Assembly (NCBI GenBank): GCA_024679065.1
Contig: JAGIQG010000013.1
Span: 52,700,001 to 52,764,000 of the forward strand
DNA length: 64,000 bases
Direction: 5' to 3'
From: Sphyrna mokarran
Taxonomy: Eukaryota
Each line of letters starts with the position of its first letter. The stretch's first letter is position 1. Below are positions 873 to 61,884 of this stretch, one piece after another. Position numbers and translations under genes: made by a program. The notes under the pieces are model-generated. The model was not told the origin of the DNA and did not search any database. It saw only the letters and a program-made list of their open reading frames with translations.

Positions 873-3800
873 AAAGTTGCAAGTGAACTATTAAAGGAGG
901 GAATGAACTACCTCTGCGGGTACATTACCATGTACCCATCTATGTAAAATTGATAATTTTATTATTTTCCATTTATGTAGAGAGATGGGATTTGTTTGAG
1001 TTTATCCATGTAGAAATCACAGGTGTTTGTGATACATTGATGCTAAACTGCAGCTTGGAGGGCAATTTAACAAATATTAAGCTGTGACCAAGTGACATTA
1101 AAAGAAGGAGGGAAGGGTGAAATGGGTCACGGCAAACATGCAAGAAGAGTTGATTCCCCAAAAGCAGGACAAGCACGTCATTGAAAATTAGAATTGTGTT
1201 GGAGCTGCCCCAAAATTTGGCTACCAATACACTAGCTGGAAATATTGTTGCGGAATCTGGTTAATTCATCAATAAATTACATCTTTGATTTACAGAATGA
1301 ACTCTTCAGCTATTAGCCCAAATTCCAAAGGATGACCACAGTGCTATACAAAGCAACATGGAGGTAGGCAAACATTTCCTACCCTCGTTTAATATTCTTT
1401 TATCTCTTGCATGAAAAGGGATTTCTGGAATCTATGAGCTTATTAGGTTCTCCTGTTTTCCTATGTGCTGAATTCTCAATGCTGTTATTTGTTCAGCTGC
1501 ACAGAATGAAAAATATTTTCTGTATTTTTTTTGGTAGTTTAGCATAAACATTTTTAAGATATGTCTCAAATATTTATGGGGGCTCGACTAACAAGAAAAA
1601 CTAAGGCTTATGCTCAGCTCCCACAATTAATGCCAAGATTCCTGCAGCTGAATATCAAGTCTCAACCAACATCTAAAGTCCACACAAATACAAGTAGGCA
1701 AAGTATCACTTATTCTTTTTCCTCCTTGTCAGACCATCTCCCATGTAGTGCTGCCATTTGAAATACAATGTTTAGAATAATAAATGTAGAGTTAACCATC
1801 ATTCATTAAAGTAGGGTTGCTGGAGAATGCATTAGGATATGAAAAATTTAATGTCTTCTGGCATTCCAATGCTTGGAAATGTGCAAAGCTAATTTTCACT
1901 TTAAAACATTTTAGACTTCTTTATTCTGAAGCCTGATGAAACACCTTAACCCAGCCAACAATGTTTCTTCAAACATATTAAAAAAGAGCATTTTTCCTAT
2001 TTTGAGCAGTATCCAACACTTTATGTTCAATCTCTCCATTATGCTTCATTGGCATCTGGCGGATCATGATCACAAATCTGACAGCATAAAAAAGACATCA
2101 CAATCTTTCAGAATAGGCTGTAACTTTTGGGCTCCGCAGCCTCAGACTTAGGAGATACCCCAAGAATTATTGAGAAATCCTTCTCAGGACTTCCCAGTTA
2201 AGCTTTTGCCCAGTAATTGTCAATGAATGCTAATTTTCCCTTGGCAATTGTGAACCATTCAAAAAGCTAACTTTGAATCGTTCTACCAAGGTTATGCAAA
2301 CAGTTATTTAGAAAGAAGTTGGATAAATAAAACCGCTTCTAACTTCTGCGTTATTTTTAAACACCTAGAATAATCAAGACACAGGACTGCCCCCACCAGC
2401 TTCCCCATCTTCACCCCTCCCCAGTGACATTACTGGATCACCTCCCATCAACCCTCCACCCTCCATTCTCCACCAAGTGTCCAACTCACTCACTTCACTG
2501 TATATCTCAAGGACTAATGGATCACATCAAACAGCATGTAAGTAATGAAAGGGACAATGGGCAAGATACAAACTGTACTCAACTAGCCCGTGCTTGCAAA
2601 ATTCAAACCGGGTCCAACATTTAATGTGATCTTGTGTTTTGACAACATTTGCTAATAATCCTCAGTGAGCTAAAAGTTATACTGACGACCAATTAAAGAT
2701 TGTCAGTCAAGCCTGCAGTGGGCACATGTATTGGAGGCTACATCTCTTAATACACAAGGACTTGTATTTTACACACAGGAAGAATATCTACACACCCTGT
2801 AACAGTTTCAGCTTAGCGAAATATTTGATAGTTGGTTCATTCCTCAGGTCAATGTTTTGACTAGAATCAAGCTTCCATTCAAACAATGTTTGGCAGTTAA
2901 TGGTAATTATCATTGGCTGGTGCATTCATTATGGTAATATCTCTACCAGAGTTCACATGCCAACCAATCAACACTCTTCTCTAACATAGTATATATTTAT
3001 TATTTTTGTATTTTGTAAAATGGCCAAGAGTGCAAGATGGAAAAGTTTGACAAAAGCCCCTTTTTTCAACAATATTTTCTATATCCTTTTGTAGCCTCAT
3101 GTTCTCTTCACAACTTACTTTCCCAAGAGCAAATTTAACAACCACACCTTCAATCCATTTACCTAAATAAATTAGATGAATTGTAAAAAGTTGAGGCTCC
3201 AGCACTAATTCCTATGGAATACCACTCATTAATTCCTGCCAACCAGAAAGCAACCTACTTATGTCTATTCTCCTTCATATTAGCAGCTAATCTTCTTCCA
3301 TGCCAGTGTGTTGTCACAGCAAGCATTTATTTTCTGCATAAAATTCTAAATAAAATAGCCCTGTCTCAATGTCATAGAATATTTGAATTATTGCAAGCTT
3401 GTATACCAACATTGGATGTACTAACAGTCAGTTGTATTGTGGCTTGGATAATAGATTCTTCCCCTCTTCACCATCCAAACTCCCCACCCACCAATGCTGC
3501 AACTAATGCCTAGCTCAGTTCTCTTGTGAAACCTGGACAGAGATAAGTGGTTGTCCAAACCAGGAAATTGAGAATGAAATTCAGTACAGGCAATTTTTGA
3601 ATACTTCTAGACAACAGTTTAAGAACACCAAGGGTTTGTGCATAAACTATTTTCGAAATGACTTTTCAGTGTGAGAACAGTGTGTTGCAGATTGCACCCT
3701 TACATCAACATTGTCCAGTTCTTGTCTCTTGCATTGAGAGTTGACTATAAACTGAGATAATGGCAAGTGGCCAGACCTGAACACGTGTTTCGAAATTCTC

Positions 3801-5000
3801 ATTAATCTTTATTAAACATGTGCTGAGTTCACCAAAACTGTTCTGCCAAGTAATAACTATACAAATTTTTGAAGATATTAAAAGCAGCACACAGACTACT
3901 ATTCAGAGCTATTACAATTGATATTAGCCACAATTAAATGCTTGGATCACATCTTTGCCTATTTCTACTCAAACACTTAGCTAAATAAAGAACACCTGGG
4001 AATCAAATAATTTTCATAGTTTGCTAAATTAGTTCTTGAGTCTGGTTACTGTATGCCCCTTTTACAAAAAGCCCATTGCAATGGTGCATGAAATTGAACT
4101 CAAGAGAGTCACCATTTTTTGCAACATGTGAGTGGTTACAATTTAGATGTAAAGCCTCAAGCATGGACCGCTGGAGGGGAACTCAAAAGATTCTGCACTG
4201 CTAAAATTAATGAACACATGCACCTGGTAATTATGCTACTTTATCTTTCTAAGAACATTCACATTGTTCCATCAGCAGGTTTAAATGAAAATCCATTCTT
4301 AATATTCCCCTGCTAAGAATCCATCTAAAAAAAAATTAAATACCAGGCTGAAAACTGTTAAACACACAAATCTCTACTGCTGTGTGAGGAAACAACAATA
4401 ACAACCTTTTGAATGTCAGTTCTGTGTTCAGCAAGTTCCATCTGAAACACTCTCCATTCACAGGCTAGCTTTGACAGAAAGTAGTATTTAAGGGTTCAAG
4501 ACAAAGCATAAAATAAAAGATAGCCTGCTCATAACCTCCAATTGTGCACTCGAGGATGAATCTCAGCGAGGACTGTGTTCTTATTAAAAGGGAGCAGTAT
4601 ATCAAACACCTTCTTTAGTGTATTCATCAAGATTTTTTTCCCTGATCAGCAACCTTCAAAGTAACTGAATGAAACAGCACCTCTTACACCACCTTGTGTG
4701 AGGCTTGTGAGCGTGGGGATGTTGGCCTTCTACAGCACCTTAATGAATTCAGATACTAGCTGGGTACTGATGAGTAATTGAAGCAGGCAGTTTGCAGCAT
4801 GTTTTGATCACTGAATCCCCTTGCCTCTCATCTCTAACAAGCCATTATGCAAACATTCAATCTGGACCTTTATATCCTTAGTGTAAAAGCATCTCCTCCC
4901 ACCCCAAGCAACCCGACAGACAACTGAAAGGAAAGCCCAGATGCTACTTCGACTGAGGAATCAAAAATTACCATCAAACCCTGGCATATCTTTCTCTTAC

Positions 5001-5095
5001 CTCAATGTCAGAATTTACAGAGACCAGTAAGCTTCTGTTCAGAGCTATGTTACTTTAACACATCCGCATTCACACACAGCTGTGGCATCGCTGTT
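5001..5095 (-). other. DMD: Candidate Dp140-like non-coding alternative first exon
   Basis: Strong donor GAG|GTAAGA at 5001/5000 in gene sense. Sequence AGCGATGCCACAGCTGTG...TGCGGA...GCTCTGAACAGAAGC...ATTGAG resembles my recollection of human Dp140 exon 1 (AGCAATGGCAAAGCTTTGTGCGGA...GCTCTGAACTAAAAGC...ATTAAG). Lies in the expected intron. 5' boundary uncertain. Confidence 0.6.
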
Positions 5096-5270
5096 GTTAT
5101 TCAACAGAAGTGGAGGCTGTCGCCTGGATGCTGAATTGCACAGCAACTAACTTTAATGTAGCAGAGGTTCAGTGGAAAACCTGGCCTGTTACTAAGTGAG
5201 CCGATGGACTGGATTAATCAATCAGCCTGTAACGCTCAAAGTCAGTGTCAATCTCTTTAGGATGCTGAGA
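5096..5270 (-). promoter_or_regulatory. Putative internal promoter upstream of the Dp140-like exon
   Basis: Repeat-free; adjacent TGATTGAT (PBX-type) and TAATCC (OTX/PITX-type) at 5211-5224, and an X-box-like GTTACTAAGTGAGC at 5188-5201. Motifs only. Confidence 0.4.
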
Positions 5271-6362
5271 CTGCACATAATAATTTTAAACACAAATACA
5301 AAATGGCTGTTTTGCAACATTAGAAACCACAAAGGGAAGATGACTTTAAAACAAAAATCATGAACAAGCAATATGATGTCCCTGATACTAGTCAATGAGT
5401 CAAATAGATTATATAATACAAAAAAAACTAGGGGGGATCTGTGTTGATATTGGTAATTATAATTGATTCCAGAGACAAGGTTAATAATGCAATGTCCAAG
5501 ATGTTGAATTAACCAATAATTGGCAGCAATGCAGAATTATTAATTAAATGTGTAAACTCTGATATTTGATTTAATAAATAGTTCATCGAAGGGGAGAAGA
5601 AGTCAAACAATTACCCTGTGCATATACATAGCTCTTTGCTCTTGCTTACATTTACTGTCATTTGCAGGCCATCTATACATTGTATCTGATTTATATTAAA
5701 ATCTATTAGTTCATGTGATATGTATTTTTTATTCAGGAAGCTAACTACTGTAAGAATACTTGCCATAATCTTAACCATATCAAATGCATTATCTGGAAAT
5801 ATAATTTAGCTTCCTTACATCTGTTGGGCTGAAATGCCACTGCTGTCACTATCTCTAATTGTTTATACAAAAAGTCAAAAAGCTCACAAGTGTAGAAAAA
5901 TAAAACTTAATAATGATCATAACTTTTGCAATTTATTTTTCTAAAAATCAGTTCTCAAGACAAAACTCACTAAGCAAGGTAGGTTTAATGAAGTCAATAT
6001 CTCAGGGATACGTATGTATGTTTCGTGCACCGCTGTTTAATTATCTGCCTTATAACACCATTCAAGGAGCATGGTGTGTAAGTGCCCATCAGTTGACATC
6101 TACTGTTACACAATAATCAGTGTTCATATGCAGTCACATACAAACCAAAGCGTATAATACTATTACGCACAGAGCTGTGCTCATATACTTTTACATTTCC
6201 TCATTGAAATTCTTGAAACTGTCATGGTATTCATGCACAGCGACATGTCACATTATCTTTCATACCGTTGTGTGCAAAATAATGAAAAGATTGCCACACG
6301 TGCACCAGCCAGCACCACAGATTGTATTAAGGATCATAACCATATTTTGGCAAATATAATTG

Positions 6363-6462
6363 TGTACATACACATACAGAGAGAGAGAGAGAGAGAGATA
6401 CTACATATCTAAATACATACATATATATCTATACAGACCTACACACAAACACATTCACACAT
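6363..6462. repeat. Compound microsatellite (CA/TA, (GA)n)
   Basis: catacacatacagagagagagagagagagagata...catacatatatatctata...cacacaaacacattcacacat. Confidence 0.85.
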
Positions 6463-8384
6463 ATCCCCATTAGTTGTTGAATAGGAGAGCCTCTATCTGC
6501 TACCACACACAGATAACTGCACCAGCATACTGCTACACAAGGAGAATTGCCTCTAAGCTGTGGCTTGTAAAATCCTGTTAAAAAACTAACAAAGTACAAC
6601 TTTATGAAAAGTAAACAGTTTAATCATTAATTGTCATGCTTCAATAAAGTCATCACATTAATACAATCTTACTTTCACTCAAAGGATATCAGGTTAGAAT
6701 GTCAGTTATGGCTCCTCTATTTTGAAATCAGGACTGGATCATTTTGGATCTAGGTTTTGCTGGATCGGTTGAGTTGCTTTCCCTTTCTTTAACTGTTAAC
6801 TCTTTCTCGGGTCCAGTTCATCCCATTGAAAGGCTGTTAGCCCATCAGTACTTTCCTGAAGTTACCATTTATGAGCCTATATGGTCCATACCACCATTTC
6901 AGAGGGCCACAGCCAAGACCAGGCTGTCTTCATCGAATTTGCATGCACCAATGCAACTCATGAATTATAATCAGAGTTCCATCTCGCCTCCAACAGGTGA
7001 TTGCACTGCAAAGTTTTACCTTCTTTGGCTTAATATTTTCATATCCACCAAACCAGAATTATTAAACAGGGAATTTCCTCAGCTGCTTCTGCTCCCGTTG
7101 TAACACCAGCAGAAGTATGGTGGAAGCCAGTTACGTATCCAAATAGGTTTTCTGCTCCACTTCTTGAAGCAAGCTTTATTGGAGGAGAATGGACCGCACT
7201 GAGGAGGTTTCTGGCGTTGATGCCCAATGTCATTCTGCTGTCCTATAGCTACACGCAAATTCAGAGAAACACAGTGTTTTACTTAGAAGAGGTCACATGC
7301 AGAGTAAAGGAATCCTGTAATTATGCACAGCAGGTTTGAATGTGAAAGGGAAAGATAGGCAAAATATGTGTAGTCCAATATGTTCACTGCATATGGCATA
7401 TCAGGCAGACATGTGGCAAATTATTGTTCTTCTACAGATGAGAGATTTTAATCAAATGGGTATCAGTATCTTGCAGCAGCCTATTCAACTGAGGATGCAG
7501 TTCAAGATTTTGTCAGACATGATTCGTGTCTGTATAAAAAGTGGAAAATTCTACAAGAAAAATAATCTTGAACATTTGAAAACTGTAGTCTAGCAACATT
7601 ATGGTATGCAGTTAAAAGGTCAGCATTAAAGGAAGTGTAAACATGTTGAAATATTCTTTTTGCTTTGCCACAACTGGACACTGTATCATGATTAGTCACT
7701 GCTACCAAAAATATACTTGAGACATCTGCTGTCGTAGTTCACTATTGTTCATTTATAACCTATCCATCAATCTCAGTTCATCTATGCAACTTTGTTACTT
7801 AATTCATCCCATTCGTCACATATACTTTGTATCACCTGGTAATTATGGTGAGCTGATACAAATTTGGCAAATGTCAAAAATCCTTTTGGATTATACAGGG
7901 ATGAATGAGTCATCTCCAAAGCATGGTTTAGTCGGTCTTAAGATATTCTTAGTCTTAGGTAGTTTAATAATAAGTATTTATTAACTATTCCAACTCTGCA
8001 ATGAATGTTGTGTCCACCATCATTGCATGGATAGCAGTGTACAAAGTTCCACATTTATGCTGTGGAATAGACAGATAATACTGAGATTTGTTGAACTATG
8101 CCAGTTTAATCAAAAATAATGGGTGGAATTCTCCCAAAAAATTCTTAGTGCCAATATCATATAAAAACAAGAATAAATACCGCTGATTTTTCAGCAGGAT
8201 TTTCGAAATGAATCTCCCACACTTCATGCATCACAGAGAGCCCTAGAGTGAAGCTTGAGAAAAAATATTTTCAACAATGGGTCAATGATGTAGGGCACAT
8301 ATATTACTCGATGTGCCATGAAACTTGAGTGCTGTTCAAGAAACGAGGCCTAGGCTATTTTATACTTTCAGCATCATTCATGAA

Positions 8385-9185
8385 AACAAGCAGCAAGAAT
8401 ACAGCATTTGGTCCTTCAAGCCTGCTCCACCATTCAATATGATAATGACTGATTCTCTACTTCAATGCCGTATTTTTGCTTACTCCCTATTTCCCTTGAT
8501 GCCATGAAAATCTAAAAACATTTCTGTTTCTCTCTTGAATGCATTGTGACTTGGCCTCCACAGCCTTCTAGATTCCCCAAACAGGGAAAACATCTTCCCT
8601 CTATCTAGTCTGTCCATGCCTGTTAGAATTTTATACATTTCAATCAGATCCCCTCTCACCTTCCTAATCTCTTATTAATACAGGCCCAATCAAACCAATC
8701 TCTCCTCAAAGGACCATCCGACAAAGCCAAGTATCAGCCTAGTAAAGCTCCAATGCATGCATCTCTGGCAAACATATCCTTCCTTAGGGAGGGAGACCAG
8801 AACTGCATGCAATACTCGTGGTGTGTTCCCACCATGGCCCTGTATAACTGCAGTAAGAAATCTCTATTTCTGAACAAAATTCCTTGTGCAATGCAAACTA
8901 AATTTCCACTTGACTTCCTAATTACTTGCTAAACCTGCCTCTTCATTTCTATTGACTGGCGTACAAGAACACAGATTCCTTTGTATACCCACATTTCCCA
9001 ATATACCACCATTTAGATAATACTCTTCTTTTCTGTTTTTCACACCAAAATATCTAACTTCACATTTAGCCACATTGTAATGTATCTGCCATGTGTTTGC
9101 CCATTCACTCAGCTTGTCTAGATCACCTTGAAACGTTCTTGCATCTTTCACACAACTCAATTTTGTTTCATCAGCAAACTTGTAA
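8385..9185 (-). mobile_element. CR1-like LINE 3' fragment (decayed RT C-terminus and tail)
   Basis: Minus ORF 8918-9160 FQGDLDKLSEWANTWQIHYNVAKCEVRYFG, the CR1 RT signature; typical 3' UTR toward 8385. Confidence 0.85.
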
Positions 9186-10130
9186 ACCTTATCTTCTTAT
9201 TTTTTTCTCTGAATGTCAACATTAGAAAAAGATGACGGTATTTTAATCATTAAAGAGCTTAAGGCTGAAAATTACAAATGTATAGAAATTTACAATGGAC
9301 ACTGCACTTCAGACAGAAGAAGGTGTCTTTGACTTTGTTGTCAGGAATCCAGAATCTAACCCATTTTCCCTGTGGAATGTATTCAGAGTACTGATGGCAA
9401 CATAAGGTGTGATTGCAACATTTCTTTGTTTGCCACAACCTATTCCAATAAATACTTGTGATATAAACAACACATTATATTTTAAGCATTGCAAAATAGT
9501 TCAAATGTACTTTCTTACTGCTACTTGTTTTTCCCTTTCACTTATGAATCAAACACTTAAAATATTTCTGTTGGCTGTTTTCTCTCCCACTCAAAATAAT
9601 AAGTCTGACAGGGGGATAAATCCCTGTTCAGTGTGAAAATTTATACACCTCCCACACTTCCATTATTTTTCATGAAATTGTTGTGAATCTATGTCCTCTA
9701 ACATCAAAAGTAATAAACAATCTCTGTTGGCTTAATGCTAAAACTCCATAAAGAAAGCTAACACAATGTGAACTGTTTATTCGTAAAGCTTTTCAGTAAA
9801 CTGGCCATTCTTAACATGGGATTAGATAAATACCGATGGTTCTCTGCTTTGGAGAGCTAGACATTATCCACTTGTAAAACCACATCATGGTATAATTCAA
9901 AGACCATTTCAGCCATGTTTCAGTTACAAGAGAGTCATGGCACTTGAGTTATGAGGCTTTTGCATACATGTAAAAATGGCTGCAACTCACAGTTAGTGGC
10001 AAAGCATCTTGATTATGCTAAAGGTGTGCGCTTCCAAGAGATTACTAAGCTCTTTCTGAAGTTAACTGTAGGCTGGATTTTATTGGTGTCATGGTCCCTG
10101 CATCTCTTCCACTGCTTCCCCAGCCACTAT

Positions 10131-10421
10131 CACAGTAGCAGAGCAGTTAGTACTGCTGCCTCACAGTGCCAGGAACCCGATTCGATTCTCGGCTTGGGTT
10201 ACTGTCTTGGCAGAAGTTCTCTGCACGTTCTCCCCATGTCTGCACGGATTTCCTTCGGGTGTTTTGGTTTTCTCCCACAATCTGAAAGACATGCTGGTTA
10301 GGTGCATTGGCCATGCTAAATTTTTCCTCTGTGCACCCAAACAAGCACCAAAGAGTGACAACTAGGGGATTTTCACAGTAACTTCATTGCAGAGTTAACG
10401 TGACACTAATAAATAAACTTT
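10131..10421 (+). mobile_element. tRNA-derived HE1/V-SINE-like SINE with alternative tail
   Basis: gttagtactgctgcctcacagtgccagg..ttcgattc head, V-domain-like core (ttctccccatgtctgc..tttcct), tail ending taataaataaacttt. Confidence 0.75.
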
Positions 10422-12341: not shown

Positions 12342-12679
12342 GGGCAGCTCAGTAGCACAGTGATTAGCACTGCTGCTTCACAGGTCCAGGTACCTGGTTT
12401 CGATTCCCAGCTTGGGTCACTGTCTGAGTGGAGTTTGCACATTCCCCTCGTATCTGCGTACATTTCCTCCTGCTGCTCTGGTTTTGTCCCACAGTTCAAA
12501 GATGTGCGGGTCAGGTTGTTTGGCCATGCTCAAAAAAATGCCCTTACTGTCCTGAGTTGCGTAGATTAGAGGGATTAGTGGGTAAATAAGTAGGGATAGG
12601 GGGGTAGGGCCTAGGTGGGATTGTGGTTGGTGCAGACTTGTTGGGCCAAATGGCCTCTTTCTGCACTGAAGGGATTCTA
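12342..12679 (+). mobile_element. HE1-like SINE, near full length
   Basis: gggcagc..agtagcacagtgattagcactgctgcttcacag A/B-box head; CR1-like tail gggccaaatggcctctttctgcactg..gggattcta. Confidence 0.85.
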
Positions 12680-13859
12680 CAATAGAAAGGCACTATATCA
12701 ATATTTTTTTAAAATAAACAAAGAGGACATACTACAACACAATTACTCCCAATGGGCAACTGTTCTTGAAGGAAAATGAAGGGCAAAAAATCAGAACCAT
12801 AGTGTAGGAGCCCTATCACTATCTTTCATAGAATGTGGGAATGCGAAATCTGTCTACTGCTTTGACCTGCAACACCTACCACGTGTTAGTTAAATGGGTT
12901 AGATGGAAGACTGTTTTTGGAAAACATTTTGGCTGTGGAGAGCCCCATGCTTGTCAGAAAACAAACAGTTATGAATACAAATACCACATAGCATAAAATG
13001 ATTATTTCCAACGTTACTTAGTGAAACAGCTTAAAGTTATGATGATAAGAGAATGGAAAGTAAGCAAATGGTATCTACAGTTTCTATAAGTGTCAAATAA
13101 AGTGTTATTTGTGGATTCTTGGATAATAAAATGAGAACCTAAAATCAATACATCTCAAAGGACTTCAACAATGAAAGTAATATTTTCACATTTTAATAAC
13201 TGACAAGTTAATGAAGTCATGTGATTAAAAGGCAGCCAAATGTGTCAAGACTACTTTCATTAAATCCATAGGATACCAAGACAACTCAAAAGATTACTGA
13301 ATTAGTGTTCACGTTTTAACAGTTTGTGCAATTATCAGTGAATATAATTCTTGAAAACATAAGCGAACTTTACCATCCATTAAACTGTCATATTAAATGA
13401 CAGATATATAAATCAATTTCGACTGTGCTAATTTGTTTTCTTCGGTCTGAGAAGATGAAGCCATGACTGAGCAATTGGAATGAAAAGTTATTATTTAAAA
13501 GACACAAAGATGGACAAAGATGTTCTTCGTTATTCCCATTTTTGTAAGGAACCAACAATTTTGCTTGATTTATTGATTGAATATCAAATCTAATGAGTCA
13601 CTGTGGTGCTGTATTTGAAACTTGGAAGGATACAGGAGTTGTTCACAAAATGGCAGCAACAATGGCACCAACCTATATTATGGCAGCAAGTGCAGTTCAA
13701 AAACTGCTTAAAGTTCTTTGTATTTCCTCAGGCTATGAAAAATGAAATACAATGGAAGTCTTTTTTAAAATTTATTTTCAACAGCAAGTAATCCAGAACA
13801 ATTTACAAACAAAGGAAGGAAAATGTACAGTGAGACAGGAAAGTACAGATTCAAACAAA

Positions 13860-17197: not shown

Positions 17198-17991
17198 TGG
17201 TAGATGTATATTGCCAACAGTGCTTTAAAGAACTGTAGCCACTCTTTTCAGATCAGCCATCTGCAATGTACGGCAGTTCGTGCAGCCGTAAATCATAGAA
17301 TTCTACAGTGCAGTAGGAGCCACTTGGCCCATCAAGACTTCACCACCACAGTTCCACCTTTGTCCTATCCCTGTAACCCCACACACATTCACTCTGTTAG
17401 TGCCTCTGATACTAAGGGGCAATTTAGCACGGCCAATATCTTTGGACTGACAATCTACATCTTCACTATCTATCTTCTTATTCTCAGATTTATCTCCACA
17501 GTTGTGACTGACAGAGTGCAGGTAAGTAAACTTGTGGGTACTGGAGGCAAGGAACTCACAAAAAGGGTGGGGGGAGGTGCAAACTGTTTGGTGAGAGATG
17601 ACAGTCAGTGCAGTAGTTAGTACTACTACCTCATAGTGCCAGGATTCTACTCCGGCCTCAGTGTCATCGTCTATATGGAGTTTGCACTTTCTGCACGTCT
17701 GCATGGATTTCTTCCAGTGCTCCAGTTTCCTCCCACAGTCCAAAGATATGCAGATTAAACTGATTGGCCATGCTAAATTGCCCCTTAGTATCCGGGGCAC
17801 TAACAGAATAAATGCGTGGGGTTACAGGGATAGGGCAAAGGTGGAACTGTGGTCGGTGAAGTCTCGATGAGCCAACTGTACTGCAGAATTCTATGATTTA
17901 CCGCTGCACAAACTACCACATATTGCAGATGGATGTTCTAAAAAGGGTGGCTAAAGTTCTTTAAAGCACTCTTGACAATATGCATCTACCA
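17198..17991. repeat. Inverted duplication, arms about 17198-17437 and 17763-17991
   Basis: Left tggtagatgtatattg..ctttaaagaact..agccac..ccatctgcaat..gtaaatcatagaattct..aatttagcacggccaat is the reverse complement of right attggccatgctaaattg..agaattctatgatttac..attgcagatgg..gtggct..agttctttaaagcact..caatatgcatctacca. Confidence 0.9.
17610..17897 (+). mobile_element. HE1-like SINE
   Basis: gttagtactactacctcatagtgccagg head, conserved core, tail agaattctatga. Confidence 0.8.
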
Positions 17992-35162: not shown

Positions 35163-35313
35163 CTTGAGTTTCTGCTTGGTTCTCTCTGGCTCTATATTTT
35201 CAGTATCCACCCTAGTATCAGCCAGGATCTGTTCTGCTTCCGTCATCCACTTGGCCAGGTCTTTCATGTCATTGTTGAAGGTACGCCATTTCTCCACACA
35301 TTTATCAAAACGC
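35163..35313 (-). CDS. DMD: Dystrophin internal coding exon, equivalent to human DMD exon 44
   Basis: Acceptor cttctgtacag|GCGTTTT, donor AAG|GTAATT, 151 nt, phase 2 to 0, joining the 61712 exon in frame (AT+G = Met). Encodes RFDKCVEKWRTFNNDMKDLAKWMTEAEQILADTRVDTENIEPERTKQKLK versus human RFDRSVEKWRRFHYDIKIFNQWLTEAEQFLRKT...LK. Confidence 0.95.
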
Positions 35314-41660: not shown

Positions 41661-43911
41661 AAATGACGAACATAGTAACTTTCCCCTCAAATGATGAACA
41701 AGACGACAATTTGGGTGTTGTGAATAGAGTATATGGAATCTTTTTGGGATACATGGGATCAATTTTCTAAATTAAATCAGTTGCTTTTCTTCACCTATGC
41801 TTAACCTATCTTGCACCTATAGTACCTGTGAGTGTTCACAAGTGCCATATGTGTCAAACATGTACAAAAGATCTCCTCTTTGAATTCAATATGGAGTTAT
41901 TTGATGAGATTTATTGCACAAACACTGAAAAATTAATTTTGTGTTGCTGCTTCACTTCTAGCTAGCCCAATAATAGTAACAGATTAAATATAAGCCCTAT
42001 GCAGTGAATATGCAATAGAAGTGCCCTATTTTAATAATGGTGTCTGTTGAATAATTATGGAACATTATTAGTCCATTCAGGGAGTCTAAATAAGCTATTT
42101 GCATTTCCATTGTTTCCATTATTAGTCATGTACTGAATATAGTGAATTCTAATGTATATCTAATTAAGGCAAGACTCGGTTCACAGGAAAGAATCTGAAC
42201 AATCTCATTCATGACACATCCTGTTGTAAAAAATTCCCAATTCAAAGTTAAAATACAAATCCAGGACTCAAGAGCTAACAGCAACATTTTTCTTAAATAT
42301 CCCAAGTTATGCTCATCACATATTTTATTATCTCATCACAATTAGACACCAAAATGATTGCAACAACATTTTTTTATACAGATGACTGATATACTGCAAA
42401 ATAGAGGAACAAAGAACTAATTTTCAAAACATTCAGACAGTCAATAGAATAGTATTTATTTCCACTAGGTTTATTTGAATCCAGTAAGCAAGGTATATAT
42501 TAAGGAGGCTGTTTATGAATATTCTGTATTTTAAAATTAGTTTGCCCAGCTCTGATTCGTTTTCAAGCTGCACCCATTTTGCTGTGCCACACTGTATCTT
42601 TAAATGCTAACTTGCCTCATACTTTTAGTCATAGACAGCTCTAAATGCATTTTCCTGCGTTCTTGCTTCTAGTGTTCATCTTTCCTTCTGAATGCTTTGC
42701 AACTAAGTTGACTGTGTATGTCAAAGTCAAGACTAATTTTGAACTTAGTCTATTGTATTTTACAAACAGCGATTTGCTTAAGGGCTGATCTCATTCACCA
42801 ACCTGGCGGCACTTTCTTTACTGCATGAAAAAAAAATATACAACTGGAATTCATATAAATATCAAAAAATGAACTCAGATTTTAGTTTAATTGGGCACAG
42901 TGGCTTGATATGCTTAACAAATTTTTAGAACTAGATGTCAACATTAATATCCACAAATTTCTTGTCTAAGTTTTGGTTTTAGTTTGGTTATTGCAAGATT
43001 AGATACTGAATAGCCATATTGCAGTGTGTGCATCCCTATTGTGAATGAAGTTAAATACTTAGGCGCTGCTTCACATCGTAAGCATGTAGTCTGACAGAGA
43101 AGGAAAGGCTAAATGGGAGACACCTGAAGAAACATGATTGTGGAAAAAATAGTTTTGATGTGTAATTTCCTCTTATTTTGTTTCCTGCATCTCATTGTGT
43201 GACATACATGTGGCAAAACTCTACTAGTCTGTTGGCTGCACAGGCAGTTCATGCTTCTGATATTTCATATTGCACTTTCCAATTGCTTATGTGCCTGTCT
43301 GCAGTAGGTTTGGGAAAGACAGCAAATTTCAAAGGAGAGATTAGCTACACTGGGTTGTTACTCTTATAATGCGTAAGCTAAAGTTTAATTTGACAGAAGA
43401 GTTTGGATTGAACTGGTCAGAGAATATAGATTCAGTTCTTTTTACATCAGCCAAAAATCCAAAACAGGGTCTTAACATTCAAATTAAAAATGAATAGTCA
43501 AACAGAAGAACAGTCAACTCATTCTTGAGTCTGCGAAAGATATAAAAATTGCCAAAGTGAGGGACAAAGTCAACAATTTTTTTTGTAAAGAAATATAATA
43601 CAAGACTGTTAGGTGTGGAAATACATTAAGATAACAATGTAGAAAGCTGAATGAAAAATCTAGATCAGGATTCTATACGTAGCTTAAATGTGTGGGCTAC
43701 AGTTGACAGATAGGTTCAACAGTTATTGCACAAATTGAAAGATCATCCAGATGTTTGCGGGTTCATAGTTCTGATCTTCTATAACTTCCTTTTTAATTGG
43801 AAGCTACATATCATATCAATAGGCAGATTTGCCCTGTAGAAAAATTAAAGGGCAACTTGGCCAAATTTTTCTTACAGGATTCTGAACAAATATCAGAGAG
43901 GAAATTTTGTT

Positions 43912-44260
43912 GAATTCCTACAGTGCAGAAGGAAGCCATTCAGCCCATCAAGTCTGCACCAATTCTATGACAGCGTGTCTTACCCCGACTCATGTTGTAG
44001 CTGCTTAATCCCACAGACCTACCATGGCTAATTCATCTAACCTCTACATCTTGGGACACTGGGGGTCAATTTATCATGACCAATCCACCTAACCTGCGCG
44101 TCTTCGGACGATGAGAGGAAACTGAAACACCCGGAAGAGACCCATGCAGGCACAGGGAGAATGTGCAATCTCCACATAGACAGCAACCCAAGGCCAGAAT
44201 TGAATCTGAGTTCCTGGTGCTGTGAGGCAGTATGGAAACAACTGTGCCACTGTGCCATCC
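43912..44260 (-). mobile_element. HE1-like SINE
   Basis: Reverse complement of the SINE head at 44260 and tail gaattcctacagtgcagaaggaagccattcagccc at 43912. Confidence 0.85.
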
Positions 44261-55712: not shown

Positions 55713-57305
55713 GTAGAGTCATAGAGGTTAGTAGCATGGATACAGGCCCTTTGGCCCAACTTGTCCATGTCAATCAGGTTTCCTAAACTAAACTAGTCCC
55801 ATTTGCCTGCATTTAAGAACATAAGAAATAGGAGCAGGAGTAGGCCATCTAGCCTCTCGAGCCTGCCCCACCATTCAATAATTTATAGCTGATCGGATAG
55901 TGGGTCAATTCCACTTACCCTCCTGCTCCCCATAACCCTTAATTCCCTTATTGACCAGAAATCTATTTACCTGTGACTTAAACATATTCAACATATTAAA
56001 CATATTCACCACTTCAATTGGCAGAGAATTCCAGAGATTCACTTCTGAGAGAAGAAGTTCCTCCTCAACTCTGTTCTAAACTGACTCCCTCTTATTTTGA
56101 GGCTGTGTCTTCTAGTTCTTGTTTCCTTTCTAAATAGAAAGGATCTCTCTGCCTCTATCCTATCGAGTCTGCTCGTTATCTTACGTGTCTCTATAAGATC
56201 ACCCCCCAGCTTTCTAAACTCCAACGAGTACAGACCCAATCTACTCAATATCTCCTCGTGAGCTAACCCTCTCATCTCCGGCATCAACTTGGTGAATCTT
56301 CTCAGTACTCCCTCTAAGGCCAATATATCCTTTTGCAAACTAGCGGACCAAAATTGCACACAGTACTCTAGTTGTGGCCTCATCAGTACCTTGTACAATT
56401 GCAGCAAGACCTCCCTGCTTTTATAATTCATTTCCCTCGCGATAATGGCCAACATTCCATTTGCCTTCTTGATCACCTGCTGCACCTGCAGACTGAGTTT
56501 TTGCGATTCGTGTACAAGGACCGCCAGGTCCCTCTCCAAGTAGCATGTTTTAATTTTTCACCATTTAAATAATAGTCCATTTTATTATTCCTTCCAAAGT
56601 GGATAACCTCACACTTGCCTACGTTATATTCCATCTGCCAGATCCTTGCCCACTCACTCAGCCTATCCAAATCTTCTGCAGATTTTCCACAGCCTCCACG
56701 CAATTTGCTTTCTCACTCATCTTTGTGTCATCAGCAAACTTTGTTACCCTACACTCAGTCCCCTCCTCCATATACGGTAAACATTTGAGGCCCCAGCACC
56801 GATTCTTGTGGCATGCCACTAGTCACTAACTGCCAACCAGAAAAGCACTCATTTATTCCAACTCTCTGCTTGCTGTTAGATAGCCAATCCTCAATCCACA
56901 CTAACACTTTACCCCCAACTCTGTGTACCTTAATCTTCTGCAGCAACCTTTTGTGAAGCACCTTATCGAACACCTTCTGGAAATCTTAAAACACCACATC
57001 CACCGGTTCCTGTCTGTCAACCGCACTCGTTACAGCCCATATTCCTCTAAACCTTTTCTATCCATGTACTTATCCAAATGTCTTTTATATGTTGTAATTG
57101 TACCTGGCTCCACCACTTCCTCTGGCAGCTCATTCCACATACACCCCGCCCTCTGTATGGAAAAAGTTGCCCCTCAGGTCCCTTTTAAATCTTTCCCCTC
57201 TCACTTTAAACCAATGCCCTCTAGTTTTGGACACCCCTACCCTGGGGAAAAGACCTTGGCTATTCAGCTTATCGATGCCCCTCATGATTCCATAAATCTT
57301 TATCA
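55713..57305 (-). mobile_element. CR1-like 3' end (55713-55813 plus 57032-57305) split by a younger CR1 insertion
   Basis: ..ctagtcccatttgcctgcattt | agcccatattcctctaaacc.. rejoins into a continuous CR1 3' UTR. Confidence 0.8.
55814..57031 (-). mobile_element. 5'-truncated CR1-like LINE (RT C-terminal part, frameshifted)
   Basis: ORFs 56755-56973 (FDKVLHKRLLQKIKVH..SGMPQESVLGP), 56473-56703 and 56039-56539 (RPQLEYCVQFWS..RTELRRNFFSQ); tail aagaacataagaaatagg. Confidence 0.92.
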
Positions 57306-61711: not shown

Positions 61712-61884
61712 ATTTGTCGATCAGCACACATCTTGTTCACATTTTCCCATTCCACATCAAGCTGAGTCACTGCATCCTGTATTTGCTTTCCGTCTGTATA
61801 TGAGACATTCCGCAGAACACTAGGTTTCTTGCTGTGAACTGCTTCTACTTGGCCCGAGAGCGTCTCCAAGTTCCTTTTTATTTT
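61712..61884 (-). CDS. DMD: Dystrophin internal coding exon, equivalent to human DMD exon 43 (spectrin-repeat rod domain)
   Basis: Acceptor ctccag|AAAATA, donor CAAAT|GTAAGT, 173 nt (same as human exon 43), phase 0 to 2. Encodes KIKRNLETLSGQVEAVHSKKPSVLRNVSYTDGKQIQDAVTQLDVEWENVNKMCADRQ, matching human dystrophin motifs HSKK, QLD.WE.VNKM..DRQ. Confidence 0.95.

Follow-up and report, generated by a model that had tools for sequence, protein, structure and literature searches.

Whether the internal dystrophin promoter that gives rise to Dp140 arose with the tetrapods or belongs to an older stock of jawed-vertebrate control sequences is the question that this locus raises. Jin et al. (2007; PMC1790709) work with three criteria for Dp140: a methionine in exon 51, no in-frame AUG between exon 45 and that methionine, and a conserved stretch of ~2 kb in intron 44 that contains the first exon. 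These features hold from human to frog and do not hold in three teleosts, and the Dp140 promoter is termed a tetrapod innovation, with the rider that it may be older and have been lost in teleosts, and that cartilaginous fish might resolve the matter (PMC1790709). Human Dp140 exon 1 is placed at c.6438+61447, and the transcript has a 1041-nt 5'UTR with its ATG at c.7381 (Taylor et al., PMC2808359); subtraction of c.6439-7380 from this leader leaves 99 nt for exon 1. In Duchenne dystrophy, loss of Dp140 is linked to impaired cognition (PMC2808359, PMC3835293). Among the matches listed in a search of the freely accessible literature, nothing on Dp140 in fishes goes beyond Jin et al., and a 2024 review (PMC11967788) contains no passage on Dp140 evolution.

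The DNA considered here is a 64,000-nt stretch of the Sphyrna mokarran genome (referred to below as the window), in which an initial annotation, made from the letters alone, had proposed a Dp140-type internal first exon. In our reading the minus-strand segment that ends at 5001/5000 lies in a conserved core and is likely to be orthologous to the first exon of Dp140; it would be transcribed from a likely promoter in that core and spliced to exon 45.

Dystrophin as the host gene

Exons 43 and 44 of dystrophin are found in the window in the same orientation as the candidate exon (Table 1). ('Intron 44' is used here in an operational sense, as the DNA downstream of exon 44; exon 45 is taken to lie past the end of the window.) Identity of the two exons to bony-fish dystrophin is about one half: the exon 43 peptide matches paddlefish dystrophin at 28 of 55 positions, and the exon 44 peptide aligns over 50 residues with the dystrophins of paddlefish and sterlet without a gap. 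This distance, together with SINE copies that are presumably of the shark and ray HE1 type (Table 1), points to a cartilaginous fish. Utrophin was considered as the host gene and rejected on the scores of both exons, which are higher with the dystrophins of sturgeon and paddlefish (145-149 for exon 43, 123-131 for exon 44) than with named utrophins (114-124 and 94-117, respectively). In a tree of exon 43 with 20 rows, the row of the window falls off the utrophin side with support 83/91, although its branch is long. No shark dystrophin came up when the peptides of exons 43 and 44 were used in protein searches, and a search with sturgeon exon 43 gave paddlefish and sterlet only. The candidate exon is thus placed on the sense strand, within intron 44 of a dystrophin gene and not of a utrophin gene.

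Compared with the mammalian chain of PDB 9c3c, exon 44 has one extra codon. Since it aligns with the paddlefish and sturgeon proteins without a gap, 151 nt is likely to be the older length.

Table 1. Coordinates of features in the 64,000-nt window
Feature	Coordinates	Strand	Remarks
Dystrophin exon 43	61712-61884	minus	173 nt; PDB 9c3c residues 2037-2096, E 1.6e-08
Dystrophin exon 44	35163-35313	minus	151 nt, phase 0 end; PDB 9c3c residues 2098-2142, E 1.4e-06
Candidate non-coding first exon	5001-5099	minus	3' end is the donor; 5' end projected from the 99-nt human exon
Exon end and donor ATTGAG/GTAAGA	4995-5006	minus	from the sequence; compare mouse ATTAAG before exon 45
Short upstream frames	5050-5088	minus	ATG 5088 (12 codons); ATG 5069 and 5063 (4 and 2 codons; exon-45 frame)
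Best site of dog Dp140 exon-1 primer	5025-5046	minus	14/22 letters, 9 in a row
Two 5' blocks of the initial annotation	5063-5092 (5092-5078, 5068-5063)	minus	present in the window
Conserved single-copy core	~4601-5219	.	candidate exon with ~120 nt on its upstream side and 400 nt of the intron behind it; borders are set by contig ends and not measured
TGATTGAT and TAATCC, which we take to be homeodomain-type words	5211-5224	minus	pattern match; upstream edge of the core
SINE copies	10131-10322, 12347-12682, 17612-17991, 43907-44255		presumably of shark/ray HE1 / V-SINE type
Broken LINE reverse-transcriptase fragments	56039-56985, 8918-9196, 2981-3211		RVT_1 match 56758-56985, E 1.3e-05; presumably CR1 type

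The candidate exon and its likeness to Dp140 exon 1

The donor ATTGAG/GTAAGA at 5001/5000 is located 30,162 nt past exon 44. Scored with a frequency-based weight table, it ranks 9th among the 3478 minus-strand GT sites of the window, takes 4th place within intron 44, and outscores the donors that exons 43 and 44 themselves use. The initial description of a strong donor about 30 kb downstream of exon 44 is thereby borne out, as is its statement that the exon-45 reading frame is closed with no ATG to follow (the TAA is at 5057-5055). All three ATGs in 5099-5001 come to a stop inside the segment, so that no frame is read into exon 45. The candidate exon is non-coding in this sense, having no open AUG into exon 45.

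No measurable mark singles out 5095, the upstream end first proposed, as the 5' end of the exon. A pattern scan found no TATA word in the conserved core, and the CpG ratio stands at only the 72nd-79th percentile. Up to 310 nt upstream there are 22 AG sites, none of which has as many pyrimidines (12) as the two true acceptors; an AG site at 5343 does carry 12. The want of a good acceptor close by speaks for a first exon. Rfam returned 0 matches, comparison with plasmids gave no match, and a scan for bacterial promoters (which has no bearing on shark DNA) stayed at chance level.

The three blocks that the initial annotation had set against human Dp140 exon 1 are all present in the window (5092-5078, 5068-5063 and 5045-5031). 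For the two 5' blocks, equivalence to human exon 1 is presumed; no paper printing their mammalian counterpart was found in the literature search. Mammalian exon 1 was otherwise compared through published primers for human (PMC2839293; PMC5626779), dog (an exon-1 primer, PMC7372313) and mouse (PMC9896479; PMC12468484; PMC12744854). The best site of the dog primer, which begins at 5046, tops 35,141 sense positions (3 others also have 14 matches, and 1 other has a run of 9). Its nine-letter run, at 5045-5037, is common to the human and dog primers, and the 3' block (5045-5031) is in agreement with both. At the exon end, ATTGAG of the window compares with ATTAAG of the mouse junction primer, which then continues into exon 45; five of the six letters agree, and the ATTRAG end of the initial annotation thus has a printed counterpart. 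Judged by sequence, the candidate has a donor preceded by the exon end seen in tetrapods. Spacing is not the same: the distance from the 9-mer to the donor is 45 nt in the window and 57 nt in human (as calculated from a 189-bp amplicon, PMC2839293), that is, 12 nt longer. The mouse primer that lies upstream of the 9-mer, between the second and third blocks, matches the candidate poorly (12/20 letters at best, with 51 sites equally good), and so does the mouse probe.

A joint score that combines primer match and exon end was set up after the sequence had been seen, and its results are to be read with that in mind. In its first form it places the candidate 1st among 1030 GTR sites, and as high a value is found at 0 of 2274 control sites and in 14 of 300 simulated introns. 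With the dog primer, the candidate ranks 1st of 1961 GT sites in 8/8 settings; when a donor term is included its score is reached by no control site of real sequence and by 1-8 of 150 simulated introns, and when the donor term is omitted by 9-84 of 150. With the human and mouse primers the candidate ranks anywhere from 1 to 107 of 1961, and since 121-150 of 150 simulated introns reach its score, these primers are not significant (16/16 settings). The resemblance to Dp140 exon 1 is accordingly suggestive rather than proven.

A second ATTAAG/GT site is found at 4738, inside the core; it is a weak donor and comes 2nd in the first joint ranking. A search pattern composed from the window and the primers (and accordingly circular inside the window) picked out 14 metagenome loci, none of them core-like and all with long open frames; these were dismissed as chance microbial hits.

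Conservation of the core in close relatives

The segment had been described as repeat-free, and this is confirmed in two ways: the window contains no self-repeat between 3250 and 8565, and the contig of a relative is single-copy, with flat read depth across the site. Twenty-four sequencing runs of 11 studies share 0.19-1.00 of the words of 4400-5700; one of these may stem from the source itself, and none is recorded as RNA. Contigs of four of them (X11, X16, X20 and X21) were aligned to 3600-8400. All four cross 5001/5000 without a joint. (Differences are counted as substitutions alone; pieces that start at 8112 or later, mostly in a high-copy repeat, are left out.) In X11, 9 of 563 letters differ in 4601-5163 as against 178 of 2499 elsewhere (Fisher p 3e-08), and in X20, 4 of 456 differ in 4622-5077 as against 34 of 391 elsewhere (Fisher p 1e-08). 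X21 differs at 5 of 414 letters in 4806-5219, its only unique piece among those listed, and in X16 a single long piece across the core differs by 5.9%, compared with 8.3% in its other pieces. The core thus differs by 0.9-1.6% in three relatives and the flanks by 7-9% in the two relatives with flank cover, which shows conservation in related organisms. Flank differences of 4-13% identify these organisms as close relatives. The runs were selected by way of the core stretch, and cover of it is therefore by choice; the comparison within each run stands regardless. The core is under purifying selection, which is seen in close relatives only. The host gene and its intron, the donor, the closure of the AUG frames, the conservation and two short stretches of agreement with Dp140 exon 1 are shown by these data.

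Two stretches beside the core also show low difference (3.6% each), 5454-5619 in X20 and 7452-7760 in X11, and may be weaker conserved elements. The stretch 8110-8250 is a repeat that has no second copy in the window and is present at thousands-fold depth in the runs of all four relatives.

Alternative readings and the age of Dp140

Conservation of the core could have a different origin. An old enhancer, homologous to the Dp140 region and accompanied by no working promoter in the shark (the promoter being a later gain of tetrapods), would agree with the location of two thirds of the core beyond the donor, in intron sequence, with the lack of a promoter signature and with the homeodomain-type words nearby. 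An enhancer needs neither the donor nor the exon end to be kept, so the match of the donor and its six preceding letters to the mouse exon end counts against this explanation, as does, weakly, retention of the exon-51 methionine in paddlefish and sturgeon; we judge it unlikely. It is improbable that the core is a lineage-specific conserved element which resembles Dp140 exon 1 by chance, because the best dog-primer site, the strong donor, the ATTRAG end and the conservation peak would have to coincide at one spot of 35 kb. What speaks for chance is the shortness of the verified match (the 9-mer, a few following letters and five of six end letters), the non-significance of the joint score with human and mouse primers and the attainment of the first joint score in 14/300 simulated introns.

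The segment might also be a cassette (poison) exon, internal to the gene between exons 44 and 45, by which nonsense-mediated decay would adjust the level of full-length dystrophin. AG dinucleotides at 5091 and 5151 would define exons of 90 and 150 nt, an in-frame stop is present in all 23 candidates listed, and the conserved flanking intron, a typical attribute of poison exons, fits as well. On the other hand, these acceptors have 9-10 pyrimidines versus 12 at the true ones, a level that 30-45% of all AG sites reach, and the primer matches would be left unexplained. We hold this to be very improbable.

The reading of the segment as a Dp140 first exon carries with it a scheme of expression for which tetrapods provide the precedent, and from which we infer start site, splicing, protein and tissue. 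Transcription would start near 5100 from a promoter in the same core, and the candidate exon would be spliced to exon 45; its short AUG frames would be closed by stops and exons 45-50 would serve as 5'UTR. Translation from the exon-51 methionine would then yield a dystrophin of ~140 kDa without the actin-binding N-terminus, expressed probably in nervous tissue and kidney.

Dp140 exon 1 of tetrapods (in human, dog and mouse as well as in chick and frog; PMC1790709) and the candidate are alike in being located in intron 44 on the sense strand, in being non-coding and in having a phase-0 donor. They also share the ATTRAG end, the 9-mer (with human and dog) and conserved surroundings, and would be of similar size if the candidate starts near 5100. 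They differ in that human exon 1 is 61 kb from exon 44 and the shark candidate 30 kb, in that the conserved region is reported as ~2 kb in tetrapods (PMC1790709) and is ~0.6 kb as seen here in the shark, and in that tetrapod Dp140 is a known transcript whereas the candidate is known from DNA alone. The gnathostome-wide first exons of Dp116, Dp71 and G-utrophin (PMC1790709) are likewise internal start points within the dystrophin family, with an origin as far back as fishes, but these are located in introns 55 and 62 and encode N-termini of their own, whereas the candidate is non-coding. The human lncRNAs ncINT44s and ncINT44s2 (PMC3448672) are also sense transcripts of DMD intron 44, but are unspliced, 2.5-2.7 kb in length, and placed at 29 kb upstream of the Dp140 promoter and 61 kb downstream of it.

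A conserved, donor-ended stretch with a partial match to mammalian Dp140 exon 1 makes it likely that Dp140 dates from early jawed fishes. With a shade less confidence than we attach to orthology of the exon, we consider it probable that the Dp140 promoter and its non-coding exon predate the split of sharks from bony fishes, still serve sharks and, probably, sturgeons and paddlefish, and disappeared from teleosts along with the exon-51 methionine. If so, Dp140 would be a character of jawed vertebrates and not a tetrapod innovation, with the core as its oldest control sequence. The question posed by Jin et al., whether teleosts lost Dp140 (PMC1790709), would be settled, the inability of zebrafish to model Dp140 would be explained, and the 0.6-kb core would be usable for shark-mammal promoter footprinting. 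Mechanistically the finding brings nothing new, and the candidate exon may already be visible in whole-genome alignments or in annotations of shark genomes.

The exon-51 methionine was followed in paddlefish and sturgeon dystrophins, the former found through a search with sturgeon exon 43; 15 of 38 cluster members are listed, and all 15 are full-length. The methionine is kept in 15/15 of these, in the context KLEMPS. The 301-302 residues from exon 45 to that methionine are methionine-free in 12 of the 15 listed, and the other 3 have one methionine, in a longer variant. The corresponding stretch of teleost utrophins (n=4) contains 9-11 methionines. Paddlefish dystrophin also has a methionine-free run of 432 residues just upstream of the exon 45-51 stretch, and because this neighbouring run is the longer one, the shorter counts as weak evidence. 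The first two of Jin's criteria thus appear, from the protein sequences, to fit a non-teleost ray-finned lineage, the second of them weakly. Two of 12 variants of a predicted Dp140-type C-terminal part were searched for as exact matches, and neither was found, which is a weak negative given the number of other splice variants. The sterlet variants P0037, P0041 and P0046 have 20 additional residues between exon 45 and the exon-51 methionine, with an extra methionine directly before the latter.
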